Origin: Parcubacteria bacterium C7867-005
Lineage (GTDB): Bacteria; Patescibacteriota; Minisyncoccia; Phycocordibacterales; Zambryskibacteraceae
DNA: 64,000 bases
Reading direction: 5' to 3'
NCBI GenBank assembly: GCA_001189165.1
Contig: LFCO01000001.1
Span: forward strand, 221,592-285,591
Shown: positions 1 to 24,538 of the stretch, one piece after another
Position numbering within the stretch: position 1 is the first letter of the stretch
Layout of the letters: the number at the start of each line of letters is the position of its first letter
Notes under the pieces: generated by a model
What the model was told of the DNA's origin: nothing
The model's input: the letters and a program-made list of their open reading frames with translations, nothing else
Databases searched by the model: none
Made by a program: the position numbers and the translations under genes

Positions 1-2707
1 TTGGATTTGCGAGAGCTAATATTTTATAAAATACTAATTGTCTAAAATAATCACCGTTTGAGTTTTTGGTTTCTCCTTTTATCTCATTTACTGACATGGC
101 CTGCTTACTCTTATAATCAAAAACTGATAGCGTGTCCCCCTTATCGATAATCACGTCAAGCTTCCCATGAATTGGTATGTATAAACCCTCTTCTACGGCA
201 TTTGCCTTGTGGCTTGCTTCTAACCATTTTTCTGTATAAACCGTGCCACTTGACTTCAGATGTGCGCCAAGCTCTCTGGCGACGATTGGTGCGTCCTCGT
301 TTATATCTTGTTTAACCAAATCCTTATCCTCGCTTGATAAAAAGGTGTCATCTACGCTCCTTATTCCCATCTCTGTTATTATTTTCTCTATCTCCAGATT
401 ATCCAAAACAGATCTGTTCTCCTTGGTCCATATATGCGAAAGTGCCTCATGCATAGCTGTCCCTCTGGTAGAGCTAATGCTCGGTGCTTGTGGCATCTTG
501 AGGATACTTTCATAGATAAATTTATTTGGGCACTCGAGGTAATGATTTAGAGCGGTAACAGAGAGTCCGTTCTTCATCAAAAGATCTTTGGCCAAGGCTA
601 AAACCTTAGAATCATAATTACTTTGATTATTCTGTTTAACCTCTGGGTTAATGTTGATTTGCATTCTGGGAATACTTACGGAGGTCGCTCCAGACTCTAT
701 CTCCGCGACAAACCGAAGCGGCGTGAGTGCTTTGCCATCAGATTCTTCAAGTGGAGTTAGAACGATCACGTGCTTTTTGGCTCTAGTAAGTCCAACATAG
801 AAAAGTCTCCTGGTGTCTTTGATATCACCACCCAAGACATCTTTGGTAGGGAGAATAAACGAACTACCATGATTTCTACCTACCCACGCTTCCTCTGTCG
901 CAAAAGGTATGAATACATAATCGAACTCGAGCCCCTTTGATCCATGGGCCGTCAGTGCCTTGATACGGAGATCTGGTGCCCCCACACTGACCTTCACCGC
1001 CTTTTCTTTGGCAGACTCTCTGTAGGCAAGCATTGATCCAAGGAGTTCGTGTGGATTTTCTATTTCTGCCTCACGGGTCAATGATTCAGCCAGAGAAACT
1101 ATACCTCTCCAGACATAAACATATGATGGATCTTTAGAAACCAGACCCGCAAAACCACTGATTTGAGCAAGCTTAATGATAAATTCTATTGGTCCACAAG
1201 ATATTAGGTTAGACCGTATTTCTTTAAGAGCCGGTTCTATGGTTTGTAGTTCATTAAATTTTCCCGCTTTAAGTGCCCTGGATAAATTGATGCTTTGGTC
1301 AAAGCGGAGGTTCCACATGTCTGTCGTCAGGGTTCGAGCCAAGTACTCATACCTATCATTTTCATTTACAAAAGTGATCAGATCAAAAAACATGACCCCG
1401 ATTGGGTGGTGGAAGATATCGACACTCCTTTCTGACGACACTGGTATGGTATTGAATTCTAAAAGCTTTATCACTCTTTCTAAGTCTTTGTTTCTTTTAG
1501 TGATAATCGCAATACTTGCATCTGGTTCATCGGTTGAAATCCTCTTAAGTTCTTCGACTAAATAATTCTCCATGGTCCGAACATCTTCAACACTAACAAG
1601 TTCTATAGGTCTTTCGCTTTCTGAATTTTGAGATAACAATTTTATGCGCAAATCATCATGTTCTCCTTCTATATAGTTTTTTTCTATCACTGAAAAACTT
1701 GAATCAAGAATGCTTTGATGTGAACGATAATTAGCTTCAAGTGAAATAAGCTTCATCTCTGACCAACGTTTACGGAGAAGCAGGAAGTTTTCTACTGAAG
1801 CTCCTTGAAATCTGTAGATAGCTTGTTTTTCGTCTCCAACTATAAAAACATTTGGTGTCTCAAAAAACTCTGCGAGCAAGGAAATAATATAGTTCTGGGC
1901 ATCGTTGGTATCTTGGTGTTCGTCAACCAAGATATATAAGAATCTTTCTTGTAGAAGTCTAAGAAACAACTCATCGTTTTTGAGAGTTACCAATAAATTG
2001 ATGATCAGATCATCAAAATCTAACTTCTTGCTTTTCTTCTTCCCCTCCTCATATCTTTCATAGATATCCGCAAAAATAAGAGTTTTTTTACATTTCTCTA
2101 TTTTCTCCTCTGCATCCGCCTTAAGCTTTCCCTTAGATTTGCCACGAGTGGAGATGGAGTCCTCGTCTTTAGTAATACGATCTATTTCTTTATCAGCATG
2201 CTGTCTGACGTTTTCTGGAGTTATTGCATCTCGTTTACAATTACTAATACTACTTATGATCCCAGATAGGTATGCGTCTGGTTTACCGCTCGGTCTCAGA
2301 TCCTTAAACTTCTGATCTTCTAAAATATCTCTTACTAACATTTCTTTATCGACATCGGTCATCTGCTTCATACCATTTGTCTCGATAAAATGGTCTTGGT
2401 ATTCATTCATCATCGCTTTGGCAAAGCTGTGGAAGGTATGCATTTCTACCTCGTGCGCTCTGGTACCTATTAAGCCCCGGAGTTTTCCTCTCATAGCTTT
2501 CACTCCGGCATCTGTATAGGTTATGGCCAAAATGCCACTTGGTGGTGTATCTGTCTGTTTAAGAATGTTGGCTATACGTAAAGTCAAAACAGTTGTTTTG
2601 CCAGTACCTGGGCCGGCTACAACCATCACTGGGCCGTCTATGGTGTCTACAGCCTCCTTTTGACTCTTGTTTAAGCTCTTATATGCTTTATTAAAAATAT
2701 CATCCAT
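1..2707 (-). CDS. UvrD/PcrA-family ATP-dependent DNA helicase fused to a C-terminal PD-(D/E)XK (RecB/AddB-type) nuclease domain. Start at 2707; C-terminus runs off the window start.
   Basis: Manual minus-strand translation from the ATG at 2707. It shows Walker A GPGTGKTTVL, DEHQDTN (motif II), VGDEKQAIYRFQGA (motif III) and ANYRS (motif IV). Motifs V/VI read AHGSKGLEFDYVFIP and VGLTRAKKHVIV. The C-terminal part shows a nuclease motif GKLDVIIDKGDTLSVFDYKSK. The ORF track omits it because the ORF is partial. Confidence 0.8.
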   Translation of the reverse strand, partial: MDDIFNKAYKSLNKSQKEAVDTIDGPVMVVAGPGTGKTTVLTLRIANILKQTDTPPSGILAITYTDAGVKAMRGKLRGLIGTRAHEVEMHTFHSFAKAMMNEYQDHFIETNGMKQMTDVDKEMLVRDILEDQKFKDLRPSGKPDAYLSGIISSISNCKRDAITPENVRQHADKEIDRITKDEDSISTRGKSKGKLKADAEEKIEKCKKTLIFADIYERYEEGKKKSKKLDFDDLIINLLVTLKNDELFLRLLQERFLYILVDEHQDTNDAQNYIISLLAEFFETPNVFIVGDEKQAIYRFQGASVENFLLLRKRWSEMKLISLEANYRSHQSILDSSFSVIEKNYIEGEHDDLRIKLLSQNSESERPIELVSVEDVRTMENYLVEELKRISTDEPDASIAIITKRNKDLERVIKLLEFNTIPVSSERSVDIFHHPIGVMFFDLITFVNENDRYEYLARTLTTDMWNLRFDQSINLSRALKAGKFNELQTIEPALKEIRSNLISCGPIEFIIKLAQISGFAGLVSKDPSYVYVWRGIVSLAESLTREAEIENPHELLGSMLAYRESAKEKAVKVSVGAPDLRIKALTAHGSKGLEFDYVFIPFATEEAWVGRNHGSSFILPTKDVLGGDIKDTRRLFYVGLTRAKKHVIVLTPLEESDGKALTPLRFVAEIESGATSVSIPRMQININPEVKQNNQSNYDSKVLALAKDLLMKNGLSVTALNHYLECPNKFIYESILKMPQAPSISSTRGTAMHEALSHIWTKENRSVLDNLEIEKIITEMGIRSVDDTFLSSEDKDLVKQDINEDAPIVARELGAHLKSSGTVYTEKWLEASHKANAVEEGLYIPIHGKLDVIIDKGDTLSVFDYKSKQAMSVNEIKGETKNSNGDYFRQLVFYKILALANP

Positions 2708-2797
2708 TTGAGGCTATTTTAGCACAGTTAATTTCATACTTGACTTTTATCCCATTTGGTGCTATTATTAACGCAGACCATTCAAAGGAGACGTGTA

Positions 2798-3037
2798 ATG
2801 CGTATCAGCCCGACACTCAGAGTGATCAGGGACGCGTTCGTGTTCTACAAGGGATCCCTGCTCGTAGCCATGCTCGCAGCACCACTCTACCTTCTTGGTG
2901 GGATGTGCTTCGTCCGAGGCATCAAGCTCCTCGTCGAACCGATCTCGTACATGCCCGGCGCAGGAGCCATGCTCATCGCTGTCGGCGCAGTCATCTCGTT
3001 CTCCACCGCGCTCGGACATGTGTCCCTCCGCAAGTAG
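2798..3037 (+). CDS. Small (79 aa) two-TM membrane protein of unknown function, encoded in GC-rich islet 1. The ORF track gives 2756..3037, but the ATG at 2798 has an AAAGGAG Shine-Dalgarno 7 nt upstream.
   Basis: Hydrophobic stretches read LLVAMLAAPLYLLGG and GAMLIAVGAVISF. Third codon positions are GC-rich, with CTC leucines. A strong hairpin plus T-run lies downstream at 3137-3180 on the same strand. Confidence 0.45.
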   Translation: MRISPTLRVIRDAFVFYKGSLLVAMLAAPLYLLGGMCFVRGIKLLVEPISYMPGAGAMLIAVGAVISFSTALGHVSLRK

Positions 3038-3136
3038 CACCCTCACCCCCCCCCGCACATCCGTGCGGGGTTCAACGTATAGTAGACCGCAATGCGCCAC
3101 CTACCACCTACCCATCAACCTCTCCCCACCCTCTCT

Positions 3137-3165
3137 CCCGTGTCAACCTGGCAGGTTGACACGGG
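3137..3165. repeat. REP-like GC-rich palindrome, copy A. Copy B at 3794-3826 is the exact reverse complement.
   Basis: Copy A reads cccgtgtcaacctgGCaggttgacacggg. Copy B reads cccccgtgtcaacctgCCaggttgacacggggg. They differ only in the central loop bases, which shows inverted orientation. Confidence 0.7.
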
Positions 3166-3180
3166 GGTATCTTTTATTTG
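3137..3180 (+). terminator. Intrinsic terminator. It has a 13-bp perfect GC-rich stem (cccgtgtcaacct/aggttgacacggg) with a 3-nt loop, followed by tatcttttattt.
   Basis: Palindrome read directly from the sequence. The T-rich tract is on the plus strand only. Confidence 0.6.
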
Positions 3181-3210
3181 ACAGATAAGCAGTTTTATAT
3201 TATGGTAATA
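3176..3210 (+). promoter_or_regulatory. Candidate sigma70-type promoter for the 3348..3716 gene: TTGACA, a ~15-17 bp spacer, then TATTAT.
   Basis: tttgacagataagcagttttatattatgg lies immediately after the hairpin. Spacing was estimated by eye. Confidence 0.3.
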
Positions 3211-3347
3211 ACAGAAATTGGATTCTTGAGTTAGGCGCTTTGGCTGCATTTGTGTTGTTAAGGCGCTTAACTCACAGGATCCGATGGGGTCGCTGGTGAG
3301 TGTAAGCCCGCGAGCCCACGGGATGGGCGGTCCACAGGAGATACACC

Positions 3348-3716
3348 ATGTCCCCGCTCCCGCAGAACAACAGGTTCCTGAAGCTCACCCCAGAGAAGGC
3401 AGAGAGGGTGGCAGAGAACCTCCGCAAGAAGATCCAAGACAACCTCTGGCACCTCTCGGTTCCTGGGGATGGGGAGAATGAATACATTTCCAGGAAGCTC
3501 AACCAGCTCCAGGACATTCTCCGCCAGTTCCAGGAATTTGGTCACGAGGTGATCATCCTCGACGAGAGGGACTTCCCCGAACTCGCTGAGGCGATCGGGG
3601 TGCTCAAGCGCGGAGGTCTCAAGGATGAGATCCTCGACATCCTCTTCAGCCTCCTCGTGAAGTGCAAGGTTCCGAAGTTCGACGTTCTGAAGGAGAACAT
3701 TCTGAAGAACGCGTAA
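3348..3716 (+). CDS. Hypothetical 122-aa protein in GC-rich islet 1. Codon usage is strongly GC3-biased, rich in AGG, CTC, AAG and GAG.
   Basis: Intact ORF. It is followed by a 10-bp-stem hairpin (gagcccacag/ctgtgggctc) and ttcttatttatatata. It has no recognisable family. Confidence 0.5.
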   Translation: MSPLPQNNRFLKLTPEKAERVAENLRKKIQDNLWHLSVPGDGENEYISRKLNQLQDILRQFQEFGHEVIILDERDFPELAEAIGVLKRGGLKDEILDILFSLLVKCKVPKFDVLKENILKNA

Positions 3717-3732
3717 CCCGGCGAGCCCACGG

Positions 3733-3772
3733 AAGAGCCCACAGCTCCCTGTGGGCTCTTCTTATTTATATA
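3733..3772 (+). terminator. Intrinsic terminator downstream of the 3348..3716 gene.
   Basis: agagcccacagctccctgtgggctcttcttatttatatata. Confidence 0.6.
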
Positions 3773-3793
3773 TAGCACCTGAGCTCTTCCCCT

Positions 3794-3826
3794 CCCCCGT
3801 GTCAACCTGCCAGGTTGACACGGGGG
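3794..3826. repeat. REP-like palindrome copy B, in inverted orientation relative to copy A.
   Basis: 15-bp stem cccccgtgtcaacct/aggttgacacggggg with loop gcc. No flanking T-run. Confidence 0.7.
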
Positions 3827-3851
3827 CTAACATGGAAGGGTTGATGCAAGG

Positions 3852-4409
3852 CTAACTTGATCTTCTTAACATTAACTCAGGTTTCCCGGCGTTTTGCTCT
3901 GGTCCAAATTCTATCTTTAAACTTTTAAGAAGAGATCTTATTTCCTCCTTTGTGCTTGCAACCTCGTCATCTCCAACTTTTCCTATTTTTTCCACCTCCA
4001 TAAATAAACCGAGATTTTTTACATCTTCAAGAACAATTTCGTACTCCGGTGTTGTGTAGATATACTTTTCATTATCAATCCGTACTAATTCTTTTAATCC
4101 AAAATTTTCTACTATCTTGATTGCTGTTTCCAAATCCTCAATTTCTGTCTCATACTCATCTGAATGTGACCACTCTTCCAAAATAAAATGATCAATTTTA
4201 TATGCCATGGAGCATTTCTCACCTTTCTGTCTGATGCGGAAAGACGCAGATAGCCTGTTTTCTTCGTCTGGTTGCAGATTCTTCCTTAGAGGATCATAGA
4301 AATAAACATCTAAAGTTTTCTTTACTCCAAGCGAGTCAAAACCCCCTAAAGCTCTTAGTGCTGTCTCTTTATCACTCTTAACTTCTATGAGAATTTCGAT
4401 TTCCTTCAT
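3852..4409 (-). CDS. CYTH-domain protein (CyaB/thiamine-triphosphatase-like triphosphate tunnel metalloenzyme).
   Basis: N-terminal EIEILIEVK matches the CYTH ExExK signature. It is 185 aa and acidic. Confidence 0.6.
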   Translation of the reverse strand: MKEIEILIEVKSDKETALRALGGFDSLGVKKTLDVYFYDPLRKNLQPDEENRLSASFRIRQKGEKCSMAYKIDHFILEEWSHSDEYETEIEDLETAIKIVENFGLKELVRIDNEKYIYTTPEYEIVLEDVKNLGLFMEVEKIGKVGDDEVASTKEEIRSLLKSLKIEFGPEQNAGKPELMLRRSS

Positions 4410-4410
4410 T

Positions 4411-5664
4411 TTAATACCCCCTTAGTCTGTTTATCTTTTCGTGCTGGCGGATTTTTTCGTGGGCCTTGGCTTCGATCTGACGAATGCGTTCACGAGTGAC
4501 ACCGAATACCTTACCTACCTCTTCTAAAGTATGTGTATAGCCGTCGGTCAATCCGTGGCGCATTTCCAAAATCTTTCTTTCTTTTGGAGGAAGGTCGGAT
4601 AAAATCTCTTTGACTTGATCTTGGATAATCCTACGAGAAGATTCTTGATCTGGTGATAGGATTTTGTCATCGGCTAAGAAGTCTCCTAGTTTGGATTTAC
4701 CATCGTCACCATCATCACCAACCGGACTCTCGAGTGACACCGTGGACTGGTCGATCTTCTCAATCTGATAGATTTTATCTACATCGAGATTCATTTCCAT
4801 AGCTATCTCTTCCTGTAATGGTTCCCTACCCAAGTCCTGGGTTAATCGACGAACGACCTGTTTATACTTGGCAATAGTTTCAACCATGTGTACGGGCACA
4901 CGGATAGTACGAGACTGATCAGCAAGGGCGCGGGTGATGGCTTGGCGGATCCACCATGTAGCGTAGGTAGAGAATTTAAATCCTTTTGACCAGTCGAACT
5001 TATCTACAGCCTTAAATAGACCCAAGTTTCCTTCCTGAATCAGGTCAAGGAGAGTGAGGTCCGGTGAACGGTTAGCATACTTCTTGGCTATAGACACAAC
5101 CAAGCGTAGGTTCGCCTTTGCTAATAGGTTTTTAGCTTCCTCATCTCCTGCTTCGATCCTCTTGGCCAAATCCTTTTCCATACTTCCAGAAATGAGTGGG
5201 TACTGACCTATCTCCTTTAGATACATCTGTATAGAATCGTACGCGGAGTCTGATTTATTATAAGAATATTTTTTACCAGTTTCTTCTACTGGCATCTCGA
5301 GCAAACCTCCACTTTCCAGGATGTCTATACCTGATGTGTGTAGTTTTTCATACAACTCATCCAAGAAAATAATGTTCTCTTCGATAGTTGGAAACTCTTT
5401 TAGAATCTCATCATAAGTGACGAAACCCTTTTCTTTGCCTCGACTAATAAGTCGATTCATCCTTGTGTTGTCCTCTTGAGCCTTTTTTGATATCGGCCCT
5501 TTCTTTAGCTTGGCCTCTTTCTTTGGTTTTAAAATTTTAACCTTTGAAGTTTTTTTAACAGATTTTTTGACACCCTTAACCTTTTTTGCCACCTTCTTCA
5601 CCTTGACCACCTTTTTGGAGCTGGCCTGTTTGCGGCTATTCTTCTGTTTTTTATTTTTTGACAT
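4411..5664 (-). CDS. rpoD: RNA polymerase sigma-70 factor RpoD with a ~65-aa lysine-rich (histone H1-like) N-terminal tail.
   Basis: Region 2 reads ...[40 protein letters not shown]. Region 4 reads [23 protein letters not shown]. The N-terminus reads [30 protein letters not shown]. Confidence 0.95.
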
Positions 5665-5676
5665 TCGTTGGTTATA

Positions 5677-7296
5677 TTACATTATTTTACGTTTCTCTTC
5701 ATCTACCTTACGATCTAGGTCGTGCAACTCTTTGGCTACACTTTCATCCTTATCATTGGCCTGAAGTTTAGCTTGGAGAAGAGACCTTTCTTCCTCAAAA
5801 TTTGCAAGGTTCAACCTGATCTTTAGCTCACTTTCTTCTTTTTGTATAACTTTGCTATTCTCATATTCTTCTGGGAACTCTTTCTTTAGGGATTCGATCT
5901 CTGCTAATCGCTTTTCAATATTTGCTCGTTTAGATGGCGGGGACGAATCCTCACTCACTTCTATTAAATTATCATTTTCTTCATTTGCTAATTCCTGTCT
6001 TAGCAAATCGGGTGCTTTTGTTTTTCTCAAATCCTCCCAGATAACTTCTTCTTTTATACCTGTATGTTTGGATATAATAGAAACAAAATGCGACCGTTCT
6101 ATAGAACTACTGAGAAGTACTAAGAGGGGTAGGAGCTTTTTCTCTATGACTTTGCCGATTTTTCTTTTGTCGGTTTCTTTGAGTAGGATTTGGGATAAAG
6201 TATGTTCGATAGCATGTTTGGCCTCTCTCAGAATATCTTTTAATTTATCTGGTGCCTCACATGCCAGGTCTGCTGGGTCCTGACCTTCGGGAAATTTAGC
6301 GACCTTTACCTCCATACCGAGCGAGAGGCCTAAAAGACTGCTCTTTTCGGCTGCTTTATCACCGGCCGTGTCACCATCAAAAGCCAAGAGTATTCTGCCT
6401 GAAAGCCTTTTCAAACGATCTAAGTGAGCGAGTGTAAACGCTGTACCGGATGATGCCACCGTATTCTTTATCCCCGCCTGATGTGAAAGTACCAGATCCA
6501 TCTGACCTTCGACTAGGATCGCAAAATTCTTCTTGCGTATATCGTCTTTAGCCTTATCTAAACCATAAAGCACTTCACCCTTAGAAAAGAGTAGTGTCTC
6601 TGGAGTGTTCAAGTACTTTGGTTGTAGATCTGAAGCGAGAGCTCTACCAGAAAAAGCTATGATGTGACCACTCGAATCTCCTATGGGGAAGATAATGCGA
6701 CCACGAAACACGTCGTACGGTTCTTTTTCTTTCTCCCCTTCTTTGATACTTTCTTCTTTTTGTTTGATCAAGCCAACCTTGAGCAAAGTATCTTTGCTGT
6801 GACCGAGTGAGGTGAGATAGACATACAGCAACCTCCATTCATCTGGAGCATAACCCAATCTCCATTCTTTAATTGATTCGTCGTTTATACCTCTGGATTT
6901 TAGATATTCATGAGCATCTTTGTTTTCCTTTAGATTGTTCTCAAAAAAGGTTGCTGCATCATCAAGCGCCTTGAAGAATTTATCTTTCTCTGTCTTGGAT
7001 TCACCGCTTTTTTGGTACTCGATCTCTACACCAGCTTTATCAGCAAGCATTTTGAGAGCTCCCTTAAAATCCACACCTTCCAGCTCTTGGACAAAAGAGA
7101 ATATGTCACCCTTCGCCCCGCAGCCAAAGCAATAGTAACCCTGTCTGGATTGAGACACAGAAAAAGATGCTGTTTTCTCGTTATGGAACGGGCATTTACC
7201 CTTGTAGTTTTGGCCCGCCTTATCGAGTTTTAGGTAAGAACTTATTACTTCGACTATATCTAGTCGTTCTTTGATGGAGTCGACTGTTCCTCGCAT
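5677..7296 (-). CDS. dnaG: DNA primase DnaG (zinc-ribbon + TOPRIM) with a C-terminal coiled-coil in place of a canonical DnaB-interaction domain.
   Basis: Zinc-ribbon region reads CPFHNEKTASFSVSQSRQGYYCFGCGAKGD. TOPRIM region reads EGQMDLV...AFDGDTAGDKA. The C-terminus is E/K-rich and heptad-like. Confidence 0.93.
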   Translation of the reverse strand: MRGTVDSIKERLDIVEVISSYLKLDKAGQNYKGKCPFHNEKTASFSVSQSRQGYYCFGCGAKGDIFSFVQELEGVDFKGALKMLADKAGVEIEYQKSGESKTEKDKFFKALDDAATFFENNLKENKDAHEYLKSRGINDESIKEWRLGYAPDEWRLLYVYLTSLGHSKDTLLKVGLIKQKEESIKEGEKEKEPYDVFRGRIIFPIGDSSGHIIAFSGRALASDLQPKYLNTPETLLFSKGEVLYGLDKAKDDIRKKNFAILVEGQMDLVLSHQAGIKNTVASSGTAFTLAHLDRLKRLSGRILLAFDGDTAGDKAAEKSSLLGLSLGMEVKVAKFPEGQDPADLACEAPDKLKDILREAKHAIEHTLSQILLKETDKRKIGKVIEKKLLPLLVLLSSSIERSHFVSIISKHTGIKEEVIWEDLRKTKAPDLLRQELANEENDNLIEVSEDSSPPSKRANIEKRLAEIESLKKEFPEEYENSKVIQKEESELKIRLNLANFEEERSLLQAKLQANDKDESVAKELHDLDRKVDEEKRKIM

Positions 7297-10200
7297 ATAA
7301 GTTTTTCTTTGTACCCACCCTTAAAGCCGGTACCTGCTGGGATCATACGACCGATAATAACATTTTCTTTCAAACCGATGAGTTCATCTTCAGCTCCACG
7401 AATAGCTGCCTGGATGAGGACTCGTGGCGTGTGTTGGAAGGAAGCAGCTGAAAGGAAGCTTGAGCGAGAGAGCGAAACTTCTGAGATACCCATGATAACT
7501 GAATCACCCTTGGACTCCTCTGTGCCCGCAGTCTTCATAGACTCGTTGGATTCCATATAATCTGAGACTTCAACAACATCTCCTCTGGTAAATTGAGTAC
7601 CACCAGACTGTCTAATCTTTCTTCTTGAGAACATTTGTCTGACGATCAATTCAATATGCTTGTGAGAAACTGCTGCACCCTGAAGTTCATAGAGTTTCGA
7701 AACTTCATGGATAATGTAGTTCTCTGTTTTTTCTTTCCCTGCATAACGGAATAGTTCGTCTAGGTCTGCTGAACCATCGGTCAAGAATTCCCCTTTCTTC
7801 ACTTCTGAACCAACTTTAACGATGAGGGTTCTAGTAGGACCAACCAAGTATTCATTATCAAGTTTCTTGGCTTTTGCTGTTTTGGCTTCACCGATATCAG
7901 GAGTGATGATAATTGTCCTCTCGTTACCCACCACTTGTATCTCTGTGACAGTACCATCAACATGCGATATTGAAGCTGGATTTTTTGGTTTTCTCTTCTC
8001 GAATATTTCTTCAACACGAGGGAGTCCTGCAGTGATGTCTCCAGCAACAGAGGCAACTCCTCCTGAGTGGAACGTACGCATAGTAAGCTGTGTACCTGGT
8101 TCACCGATAGCCTGAGCAGCAATAGTACCAACTGCTTCACCGAGCTCTACTACTTTGTTTGTACCGAGATCTGCACCGTAGCATTTGACACAGACACCGT
8201 GTAGAGACTTACAAGTCATAGGAGACCTTACATCCACAGCTTCTACCATCGCTTTGTCTATAATCTCTGCATCTTTTTTATGTATGAAGTGACCCTTCTT
8301 AAAGAGTACTGATCCCTTGCCGTCGATCACATCATTTGCCAAGAACCTGCCCTTCAATGTTTTGGAAAGAGGAATCTCTATACCCGAAGCAGTTTTCTTA
8401 CTGATAGTGGTAAATTCTTTAGTACCACAATCTTCCTCAGAAACAATCTCGTCCTGAGCCACATCGAAGAGTCTACGAGTTAGATATCCTGCTTTTGCCG
8501 TGTTTAGGGCGGTGTCGGTCAAACCCTTTCTTGATCCGTGGGTGGTGATAAAGTATTCGAGCGGAGTTAGGCCTTCTTTGTAACAAGACAGAATTGGGAA
8601 CTCTAGAGCATCTCCAGAAACATTCTGGATAATACCTTTCATACCCGCCATCTGGTTTAAGTTACCAAGGGATCCACGGGCCTTCGAGTAGGTCATGTCG
8701 TAAACAGAGTCTTTTGGACCAAGAGTAGCGGGGATAAGTGCCTCGACCTCTCCTTTGATTGACTGCCAGATCTCAACAGATTTCTGAACGCGTTCATTTT
8801 CTGAGAGAAGACCGTCATTGTACTGGTCGATAACTTTTCTAACTTTGTCCCTACCTTTGTCGATAATGCCTTGCTTGGCCTCAGGGATCTTTACATCATC
8901 TATACCCCAAGTGACTCCAGAATGTGTGGCATATTTGAAACCGAATTCCTTGATTCTGTCGATGATCGCAGGGATATTGGCTATGCCGTATCTCTCTATT
9001 AAATCATCAACCAGGTCAACCATTTTTCTTGAATCTACTTCGTAGTTCATGAATGCATAGTCTGATGGAAGGACACTGTTAAAGAGTAGTCGTCCGACGG
9101 TTGTCTCAAATATCTTGCCGTCAAAAGCTTTGTACTTCTCTGAATCTGTTGGGAGAATGTGAACTTTCGCTCGATAGCTTACTGCACCAAAATCATGTGC
9201 GGTGATAGCTGCATTTGGACTTGAGAAATACTTATCTTCTCCCTTTTCCCCAGGAATCATTCTGGTCATCCAGAACGAACCGAGAACGATGTCGAGCATT
9301 TTGGCTGAAACAACAGGCTCTCCGTTTCCAGGTTTCAAGATATTTTTATCCGCTGCCATGATCAGACGAGCTTCTGCTTGTGCCTCATCAGACAGAGGGA
9401 CGTGAACTGCCATCTGGTCTCCGTCGAAGTCTGCGTTAAAGGCAGTACATACAAGTGGGTGGAGCTGGATAGCGTTGCCCTCGATAAGCACAGGTTGGAA
9501 TGCCTGGATACCGAGACGATGCAGGGTAGGAGCACGGTTAAGGAGAACGTATTTACCACGAATTATTTCTTCGAGTATCGCCCAGACTTCAGGAATTGCA
9601 TCTTCTATTAATCTACGTGCACCTGGGATATTGAAAGCAAGTTCCCTCTTTAGAAGTTCGGAAATAATAAATGGCTTAAAGAGTTCGAGGGCCATGTGCT
9701 TTGGCAAACCACACTGGTGAAGCTTGAGTTCTGGACCGACGACGATAACTGAGCGACCAGAATAGTCAACACGCTTACCAAGCAGGTTTTGTCTGAACAA
9801 ACCACGCTTTCCTTTTAGGTTGTCTGAGAGTGACTTGAGTGGGCGTCTCTGTGACTGATTTCCTGCGGCTGTGCCGTGTCTGATGGTGTTGTCTATAAGT
9901 GCATCGACAGCTTCTTGCAGGATTCTCTTTTCATTTCTGAGAATAACATCAGGGGCACTGATATCCATGAGCTTCTTCAGGCGGTTATTTCTATTTATCA
10001 CTCGACGATAGAGGTCGTTCACATCGGATGTAGCGTATCTTCCTCCATCCAAAGGAACCATGGGACGAATCGCTGGTGGAATAACTGGGATACGGGAAAG
10101 GAACATCCATTCTGGACGGATACCTGCGCGCATCATCCACTGGATCGTGCTAGATCTCTTGTGAAGCCTTGCGAGTTCTGTAGAAGGTGCTTTCTCTAAC

Positions 10201-24070: not shown

Positions 24071-24538
24071 CTACGCGTGGACCAGGGACCTCAAACGCTT
24101 GAGGGCTTTCCCAGCGGCGACCCCATGTTCCCCGAACAAGACCGTCTGAGCCTCCTCGAGGCTGATCAGATACGGGGCAGACATCCAGTCGTTCCCGATG
24201 ATGATCTCTTCGGTGCGCATGGTCCCCACCATGGCCGAACGCTCGACCAGATAGAAACACTTGATATGCCCGTTCGCGGACGGCGGCGGTGAATGGATCA
24301 GGAGCCCGTCGTTCCTCGATCGGATTGACATGTTGGTCTCCTCGGGGACTTCGCGGTCTCGAGTATCGAGCACGCTTTGGTCCTCCGGGTGACCTTCTTC
24401 AGTGCCGCCAGGGGCCTTCACCTTGGTTGGCCCCTTCGTGCCGTCCTTCTTGACCACAGCGCATTTCATCACCCAGACCATCCACTCACCATCGATGAGT
24501 TCGACGATCAGAGCAGCGGCAAACCAGCGAGCGGCCAC
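24071..24538 (-). CDS. NUDIX hydrolase encoded in GC-rich islet 2. The GTG start at 24538 was verified, but the ATG at 24481 is a plausible alternative start.
   Basis: GG...E...REV.EET Nudix-box-like GGTEEGHPEDQSVLDTRDREVPEETN. GC is ~60% against a ~40% background. Confidence 0.6.
   Translation of the reverse strand: MAARWFAAALIVELIDGEWMVWVMKCAVVKKDGTKGPTKVKAPGGTEEGHPEDQSVLDTRDREVPEETNMSIRSRNDGLLIHSPPPSANGHIKCFYLVERSAMVGTMRTEEIIIGNDWMSAPYLISLEEAQTVLFGEHGVAAGKALKRLRSLVHA

Follow-up and report, generated by a model that had tools for sequence, protein, structure and literature searches.

REP-like palindromes of Parcubacteria bacterium C7867-005 and a probable partner family of Y1 transposase-like proteins in Patescibacteria

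Repetitive extragenic palindromic (REP) sequences and the REP-associated tyrosine transposases (RAYTs) are regarded as long-lived replicators nested in bacterial genomes, mainly those of Proteobacteria together with a few other phyla. Transposases of the Y1 (HUH) type leave no target-site duplication, the absence of which is therefore no evidence against mobility. Here, two near-identical GC-rich palindromes are described from Parcubacteria bacterium C7867-005, in a stretch of 64,000 nucleotides (contig LFCO01000001.1, positions 221,592 to 285,591; this whole stretch is referred to as the window), where they lie on either side of a gene encoding a protein of 122 aa. The palindromes are probably REP-type hairpins that partner a family of RAYT-like tyrosine transposases of the Y1 (HUH) type, widespread in Patescibacteria. 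This would extend the REP/RAYT logic to these ultra-small bacteria, whose genomes are the smallest and most streamlined among bacteria.

The closest described systems are the REP/REPIN-RAYT systems of Escherichia coli (TnpA-REP/RayT, PDB entry 4ER8) and Pseudomonas. As in these, the palindromes described here are short, extragenic and, in the other genomes retrieved, dispersed with several copies per genome, they cluster near the 3' ends of genes, and the same palindrome is present on both sides of an HUH/Y1 gene that appears to be inherited vertically at one locus and the product of which has a predicted fold matching 4ER8. In contrast to the known systems, the core is kept across classes of a phylum and not within a genus, few exact copies per genome were retrieved and not tens to hundreds, the short-spacer doublets of REPINs were not seen, the hairpin doubles as a putative -35 box and stop codon of the transposase gene, and the protein scores far below the NCBIfam cut-off for RAYTs. 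The core is a near-perfectly symmetric 10-1-10 palindrome, and a GTAG of the kind that marks the GTAG class of REPs is not conserved among the 58 aligned copies, the core ending in TGTC...GACA with variable positions outside it.

Regarding the IS200/IS605 group (IS608, ISDra2, IS200 and the gene-less PATEs), the Y1 HUH enzyme is a common feature, the hairpins described here end a unit of ~715 bp, which is near the size of IS200, and the best sequence-level match in the PDB is ISDra2 TnpA. Unlike an active insertion sequence (IS), however, the gene has in four species a syntenic position between the genes for SMC and RNase R, with no second copy in any retrieved locus set, and its flanking hairpins are one palindrome and not distinct left and right ends.

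The REPs tagged with CGTC or TGTC are short stem-loops in which the CGTC end tag is TGTC in many repeats; they have stems of 8-9 bp, loops of 4-5 nt and a CCA tail, occur mainly in Alphaproteobacteria, in some cases inside genes, and are not accompanied by a transposase (Di Nocera et al., 2013; PMC3733652). The core described here also starts with TGTC, and about 20% of its copies lie in frame within open reading frames (ORFs), which recalls the in-frame palindromic elements of Rickettsia, but it carries the tag on both strands, has a stem of 10 bp plus about 4, and flanks a transposase-like gene; the TGTC resemblance is a lead only. The first palindrome of the window also resembles Rho-independent terminators in that its GC-rich hairpin has a T-rich tract behind it on the plus strand, whereas its sequence is conserved across genomes, the second palindrome has no T-run and the neighbouring genes have terminators of their own. 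Among open-access papers and preprints, none was found that links RAYT, REPIN, REP or IS200 to Patescibacteria in this sense, and a 19-mer of the core was not found in their full texts, so that this dispersed hairpin family is apparently undescribed.

Palindrome family and bracketed gene in other genomes

Exact matches to the 21-nt core, TGTCAACCTG-N-CAGGTTGACA, in a species-representative genome collection revealed 60 sites at 46 loci in about 30 other genomes, against a chance expectation of about 0.5 (596 Gb / 4^20). The original prediction had called the pair REP/MITE-like, unusual for an AT-rich streamlined genome, and had considered the case that it occurs only here; the copies in other genomes remove that case and bear out the REP-like part of the description, and the palindrome proved to be widespread precisely in streamlined Patescibacteria. 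Nearly all hosts belong to this phylum, including Zambryskibacteria, Nomurabacteria, Kaiserbacteria, Paceibacterota, other Parcubacteria and Saccharibacteria. Between two and eight exact copies were retrieved per genome, in some cases as clusters such as the four copies within 1 kb at locus L046 (1055-1997; retrieved loci are cited by L numbers), which lie upstream of the transposase gene. There were no matches to the core in viral contigs and thus no sign of a phage origin, and metagenomes scanned for the outer-stem type seen in the window yielded five loci, all from other genomes.

Outside the core the stem varies in sequence and remains complementary, with outer stems such as aagg/cctt, aact/agtt, aaca/tgtt and cccccg/cggggg. 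It is extended by at least four Watson-Crick pairs in 35 of 58 copies, and each of the four positions next to the core is paired in 71-93% of these 58 copies by three to five pair types. The covariation score of the outer stem is 0.245 compared to 0.097 for shuffled sequences (0 of 500 shuffles reach it), and every slid control scored lower. The invariance of the core is built in by the search, which does not apply to the outer-stem covariation, and the latter argues for selection on a folded single strand and not merely on a duplex site.

Some 46-48 of the 60 copies (~78%) are intergenic, often a few bases from a stop codon, and about 12 copies, or about a fifth, lie within long ORFs, where they are read in frame, through either of two open frames, as VSTWQVDT or CQPGRLT (e.g., L029 at 4296, L004 at 5005, L014 at 6462, L042 at 1393, L045 at 3650 and L034 at 4069); one of them is located in a P-type ATPase gene just past the DKTGT motif. 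The word TCAACC, which is part of the arms, was found in the same orientation in 10 of 116 outward flanks, with 1.2 expected, and once in the opposite orientation. Variant architectures, besides the L046 cluster, include a half-core pair placed around a palindrome and tandem repeats of one arm plus the outer stem (L050 266-316, L053 4927-4977, L033 5167-5215 and L014 145-180), with the nested, arm-duplicated form GTGTCAACC-cg-core-cg-GGTTGACA in L050 and L053. Exact cores are also present in contigs assigned outside Patescibacteria, namely to a Woesearchaeota archaeon (L003), an Anaerolineae bacterium (L009), in which the core lies inside an ORF with 9 bp of extra stem, and the cultured alphaproteobacterium Rhabdonatronobacter (L041), in which several half-sites are close by; these could reflect mis-binning, transfer or convergence.

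The partner gene encodes a protein of ~220 aa. At three loci (L010, L027, L036), two cores 691-693 nt apart bracket this ORF, and, counting core variants with up to three mismatches, tblastn searches revealed the palindrome-bracketed gene at 10 loci (these three and L005, L012, L016, L026, L030, L035 and L046). The 5' copy is located 25-30 nt before the start codon, and its TTGACA is followed at a spacing of 16-17 nt by a box that reads TGnGAAAAT, TAATAT or TACAAT; from its position, it is plausibly the -35 element of the transposase gene's promoter. The coding sequence ends within the 3' copy, which supplies the final residues together with the stop codon (GTC AAC CTG GCA GGT TGA, translated VNLAG*); such palindrome-encoded C-terminal peptides, of VNLAG or STCQVD type, terminate 69 of the 120 best family members, and most of the others end in close variants.

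The HUH motif PNHxHLL (N73-H74-x-H76) and the tyrosine motif Y-I-D-L-N (Y135-x-D137-x-N139) are invariant in the family, the latter, YIDLN(P), ending in N-P as it does in RAYTs. Matches to the Pfam family Y1_Tnp (PF01797; 15.5-21.5 bits, cut-off 23) and to the NCBIfam family REP_Tyr_transpos (NF047646, 'REP-associated tyrosine transposase'; 14-21 bits, cut-off 80) were weak, while a PDB profile search matched ISDra2 TnpA across the HUH region (E=1e-3). The AlphaFold (AF2) model has a pLDDT of 85.6, and in Foldseek searches its top PDB folds were Y1 transposases, with IS608 TnpA (2A6M; E=5e-4) and the E. coli RAYT 4ER8 (E=7e-4, 171 columns) followed by ISDra2 and IS200; the only other fold among the top 40 matches was the weaker Thg1. 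The protein is thus, as judged from its predicted fold, Y1 (HUH) transposase-like with putative catalytic activity. The family comprises at least 6,809 clusters at 90% identity (E<=1e-5), mostly unnamed or annotated as 'hypothetical'.

At a Kaiserbacteria locus (L007, 3099-3731), a homologue with 34% identity has another palindrome, TGTGTAAGGGGAGCCCTTACACA, on either side, and thus bracketing by a cognate hairpin is a property of the family; the same locus also has one TGTCAACCTG core at 1728. The SMC gene and the RNase R/II (RNB) gene are the same neighbours in all four species mentioned above, with other neighbours partly shared, which suggests vertical inheritance at a single locus and not IS-like spread. 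There is one transposase-like gene per genome among the retrieved loci, and in the loci examined the type of outer stem follows the protein clade.

The palindrome pair and its locus

Copy 1 of the palindrome (3137-3167; invariant core 3141-3161, centre G) contains a perfect palindrome of 14+1+14 nt (3137-3150/3152-3165) and has a stem of 14 Watson-Crick pairs, or 16 counting a T-G pair. Copy 2 (3794-3826; core 3800-3820, centre C) is a perfect palindrome of 16+1+16 nt (3794-3809/3811-3826) with a 16-bp stem. As originally described, the two are exact reverse complements that differ in the central base, each being otherwise self-reverse-complementary; a repeat finder gave 31-nt arms (3137-3167 and 3794-3824) with 100% complementarity, and the distance between the copies is 659 nt. 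With a 23-nt pattern and up to three mismatches, only these two palindromes were found in the 64 kb (0.00 expected from 100 shuffles), and no third copy appeared in the window even with five mismatches allowed. Over all of its 31 nt, copy 1 agrees exactly with the palindrome located upstream of the RAYT-like gene at loci L026 and L051.

The inverted orientation of the pair is supported by the central base and by a flank motif that had gone unnoticed, CATCAACCTCTCC at 3113-3125 on the plus strand, with its mirror image GGAAGGGTTGATG at 3834-3846 (CATCAACCCTTCC read on the minus strand). The former contains a direct third copy of the arm word TCAACC and is 20 nt from the core of copy 1, the latter is 18 nt from the core of copy 2. 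Together, the mirrored motifs and the central base, which alone would be thin support, show that the two units of ~55 nt point outwards.

Folding, which had been proposed as a check, gave the hairpin on both strands of the copies (z-scores -3.6 to -4.7). Copy 1 is located between the hairpin of a 79-aa gene and the promoter of the 122-aa gene, and was detected as terminator-like in a scan, which counted 15 pairs and, behind them, the T-rich plus-strand sequence TATCTTTTAT. The scan thus agrees with the proposal that copy 1 may double as a terminator beside a TTGACA promoter, while the -10 box assigned to that promoter is TATGGT (3201-3206), TATTAT belonging to the promoter-like sequence at 2740-2768. 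Copy 2 lies between the terminator of the 122-aa gene, starting about 30 nt past it, and the stop codon of a convergent CYTH-domain gene, and was not detected in the terminator scan, a T-run being absent on both strands. Rfam searches of 2400-4200 at E<=1 gave only microRNA noise, and at gathering thresholds one tRNA was found in the whole window.

One contig, L047, is collinear with the window, with genes for the helicase, an 80-aa protein, the 122-aa protein, sigma-70, DnaG (dnaG) and rpoC. Between the helicase and sigma-70 genes it carries the 122-aa gene together with the promoter, leader and terminator known from the window, and neither palindrome. In a pairwise alignment with cheap gap extension, the left junction is a single clean gap of 93 nt between the common TTCAACGT and the common TTGACA promoter; the segment absent from L047 (3079-3171) consists of a C-rich, G-poor tract and copy 1. 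The C-rich tract (3079-3136) has no further copy in the window or at any locus and is thus not a recognisable second repeat. On the right side, the two sequences diverge directly past the common terminator of the 122-aa gene. Target-site duplications, which had been proposed as a check, were not seen at the junctions of the 93-nt indel beyond a trivial TA, as expected for a Y1 (HUH) enzyme; this does not count against mobility. Gain or loss at this locus either way implies mobility.

The view of the palindromes as REP-type hairpins served by the Y1 family is based on the covarying stem, the extragenic dispersal, the bracketed gene with a Y1 fold and the presence or absence at a collinear locus, while the mechanism is drawn by analogy with the TnpA proteins of IS608 and ISDra2 and with E. 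coli TnpA-REP. In transiently single-stranded DNA, each copy would fold into a hairpin of 14-16 bp; the transposase would bind this hairpin, cleave the unpaired strand close to the hairpin's foot, becoming covalently linked to it by its tyrosine, and rejoin the cut strand elsewhere without target duplication. Copies would then accumulate at tolerated sites such as the gaps just beyond terminators. In the window, two outward-facing units would have landed around a pre-existing transcription unit that they did not bring with them. As a side effect, copy 1 and its T-rich tail may add a terminator between the 79-aa gene and the promoter of the 122-aa gene, while copy 2, lying between convergent genes, may stop read-through or protect mRNA 3' ends.

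Several observations weigh against this view. Both copies in the 64 kb bracket one and the same transcription unit, and their independent arrival there, 659 nt apart, is unlikely (roughly 2-10% by estimate). With a single syntenic relative, gain in the lineage of the window and loss in L047 are indistinguishable. No transposase gene was found in the 64-kb window, the part of this genome that was searched. The profile scores under the curated cut-offs point to a distant clade and not to the curated equivalog, and transposition and cleavage are roles predicted for the family from its relatives. The core lacks the asymmetric GTAG tag of classical REPs and is conserved over far wider taxa than these, which could reflect a host function over mobility.

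If confirmed, these findings would extend such elements to the Candidate Phyla Radiation and would provide a sequence marker for comparing patescibacterial genomes, a probable origin for small indels, some of them in-frame insertions within essential genes, and a compact symmetric pair of hairpin and enzyme for studying DNA recognition by HUH enzymes. For the annotation of the window, the palindromes are to be treated as repeat elements and not as the boundaries of a horizontally acquired cassette.

Alternative explanations

A more speculative and less likely reading is that the hairpin and the Y1 transposase are partners throughout the phylum, inherited vertically together, and have been co-opted in Patescibacteria as portable gene punctuation. 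The core carries a perfect TTGACA -35 box on both strands and, also on both strands, a TGA stop in one frame that is used by the transposase gene; it gives a terminator-grade hairpin as well, and several neighbouring genes end 2-6 nt before it or inside it. Such a multi-purpose role, as opposed to selfish spread, would explain a core that is frozen across classes next to an outer stem that drifts.

It is rather improbable that the palindrome serves mainly as a host signal or as a site bound in double-stranded form, operator-like or parS-like, with a regulatory link to the transposase gene. The perfect symmetry of the 10-1-10 core, unchanged across several classes, the additional half-sites beside some copies and the spacing of the core TTGACA, 16-17 nt before the -10-like box of the transposase gene, would suit such a site. 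However, the covarying outer stem has no role for a dimer that binds the duplex, copies are found within unrelated genes such as that of the P-type ATPase and at gene 3' ends, not upstream of a regulon, and the two-sided bracketing of an HUH/Y1 gene recurs in L007 with a different palindrome. The core bears no resemblance to the parS consensus, and parS was rejected on this and on the covarying stem.

The original prediction had offered two further readings, that the palindromes mark the ends of a mobilised cassette or that they are REP elements of a donor genome carried in with the island. Regarding the former, the pair would be the ends of a non-autonomous cassette that carries the 122-aa gene and is mobilised in trans by a Y1 transposase, and this is very unlikely. 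In its favour, the two copies and their outer motifs mirror each other in inverted orientation, a single transcription unit, complete from promoter to terminator, lies exactly between them, their spacing of 659 nt resembles the ~693 nt around the transposase gene, and the 122-aa gene family occurs in differing genomic contexts between genomes. Yet in L047 this unit occupies the corresponding position and both palindromes are missing, and at three other loci (L048, L055, L056) the 122-aa gene with the same leader, and likewise its promoter and terminator, is present in other genomic contexts and again without palindromes. Furthermore, the identity of the unit to that of L047 (79% nt; 61% aa for the 122-aa homologue) is in line with that of the flanking genes (68-75% nt), which fits vertical descent, and IS200/IS605-type enzymes, as is generally known for IS608, require ends on the same strand, not inverted ones. 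A search between the palindromes for transposase remnants, testing whether the 122-aa unit had replaced a RAYT gene, gave only noise and the palindrome-encoded pentapeptide, and no such remnant was found in the rest of the window. On sequence comparison, the 122-aa gene is thus not the cargo of a palindrome-ended cassette. Regarding donor-genome REPs, the orthologous island of L047 has no palindromes, so the palindromes did not travel with the island.

That the pair represents simple transcription terminators of local origin, unrelated to mobile DNA, is scarcely credible, for while copy 1 scores as a terminator and both copies are downstream of genes, copy 2 has no T-run on either strand, both upstream genes have conserved terminators of their own and a local origin cannot account for an identical 31-nt sequence in unrelated genomes.

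Other classes of element were rejected. Irregular spacing rules out a CRISPR array, and a cut-and-paste miniature inverted-repeat transposable element (MITE) with terminal inverted repeats is contradicted by the missing target-site duplication and by a unit that is a single hairpin and not a pair of such repeats. An integron attC cassette does not agree with the conserved promoter of the 122-aa gene and with palindromes on both sides; no integrase was found among the ORFs of 1-9000, the part of the window that was scanned for one.

Genes and regulatory features of the GC-rich island

The palindromes lie in an island (2790-3830) of 52-67% GC, compared to a window mean of about 42%, which is flanked by two minus-strand genes, at the 5' end of a gene for a UvrD-type helicase, so assigned from the Pfam UvrD domains of the L047 orthologue, and at the 3' end of the CYTH-domain gene. 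The latter (3852-4409, minus strand) lies directly downstream of the sigma-70 gene and is absent from L047, in which the terminator of the 122-aa gene abuts the end of the sigma-70 gene. Between the window and L047, sigma-70 is 88% identical and DnaG 51%.

The first of the two plus-strand genes of the island (2798-3037) encodes a hydrophobic protein of 79 aa and is preceded by the promoter-like sequence TTGACT-N17-TATTAT (2740-2768) and followed by the terminator-type hairpin CCCCGCAC-atcc-GTGCGGGG (3051-3070, plus strand), which is pre-existing and common to L047. The 80-aa gene of L047 (5527-5769) has the promoter region and the terminator hairpin in common with it, while the two hydrophobic proteins have no detectable sequence similarity, a pattern that would fit an exchange of the coding part or its divergence past recognition.

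The second gene (3348-3716, plus strand), located between the two palindromes, encodes the 122-aa protein, a helical-bundle protein of a very small orphan family. Three close relatives were found in 5.8 billion sequences and 11 representatives in 1.84 billion proteins. Its structural model has five helices (pLDDT 94) and matched only generic helical bundles in the PDB (E>1), with no meaningful fold match, and searches of Pfam, PHROGs and NCBIfam with the 122-aa and 79-aa proteins gave no usable match. The promoter-like sequence TTGACA-N17-TATGGT (3178-3206, plus strand) is kept in L047, L055 and L056, and thus in relatives without the palindrome, and the intrinsic terminator (3731-3768, plus strand) is common to L047 and L056.

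Between promoter and gene, a structured 5' leader of 125 nt (3222-3347, plus strand) is conserved and lies outside the repeat. Equivalents are present at L047 5877-6002, L055 524-643, L056 3939-4065 and L048 186-265, and the leader is strongly conserved in every occurrence of the 122-aa gene family, including those in unrelated contexts. Its fold comprises one long and two short hairpins, and a comparison of five sequences showed compensatory changes in 7 of the 32 pairs. The leader has no match in Rfam and is a candidate for a new cis-regulatory RNA.

A second GC-rich (55-65%) island with a small gene, an ORF of 155 aa without a Pfam hit, is present at 24071-24538 on the minus strand, with no palindrome nearby. 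In L047, too, the counterpart of the first island exceeds the adjoining sequence in GC content, and thus the GC bias travels with the genes.

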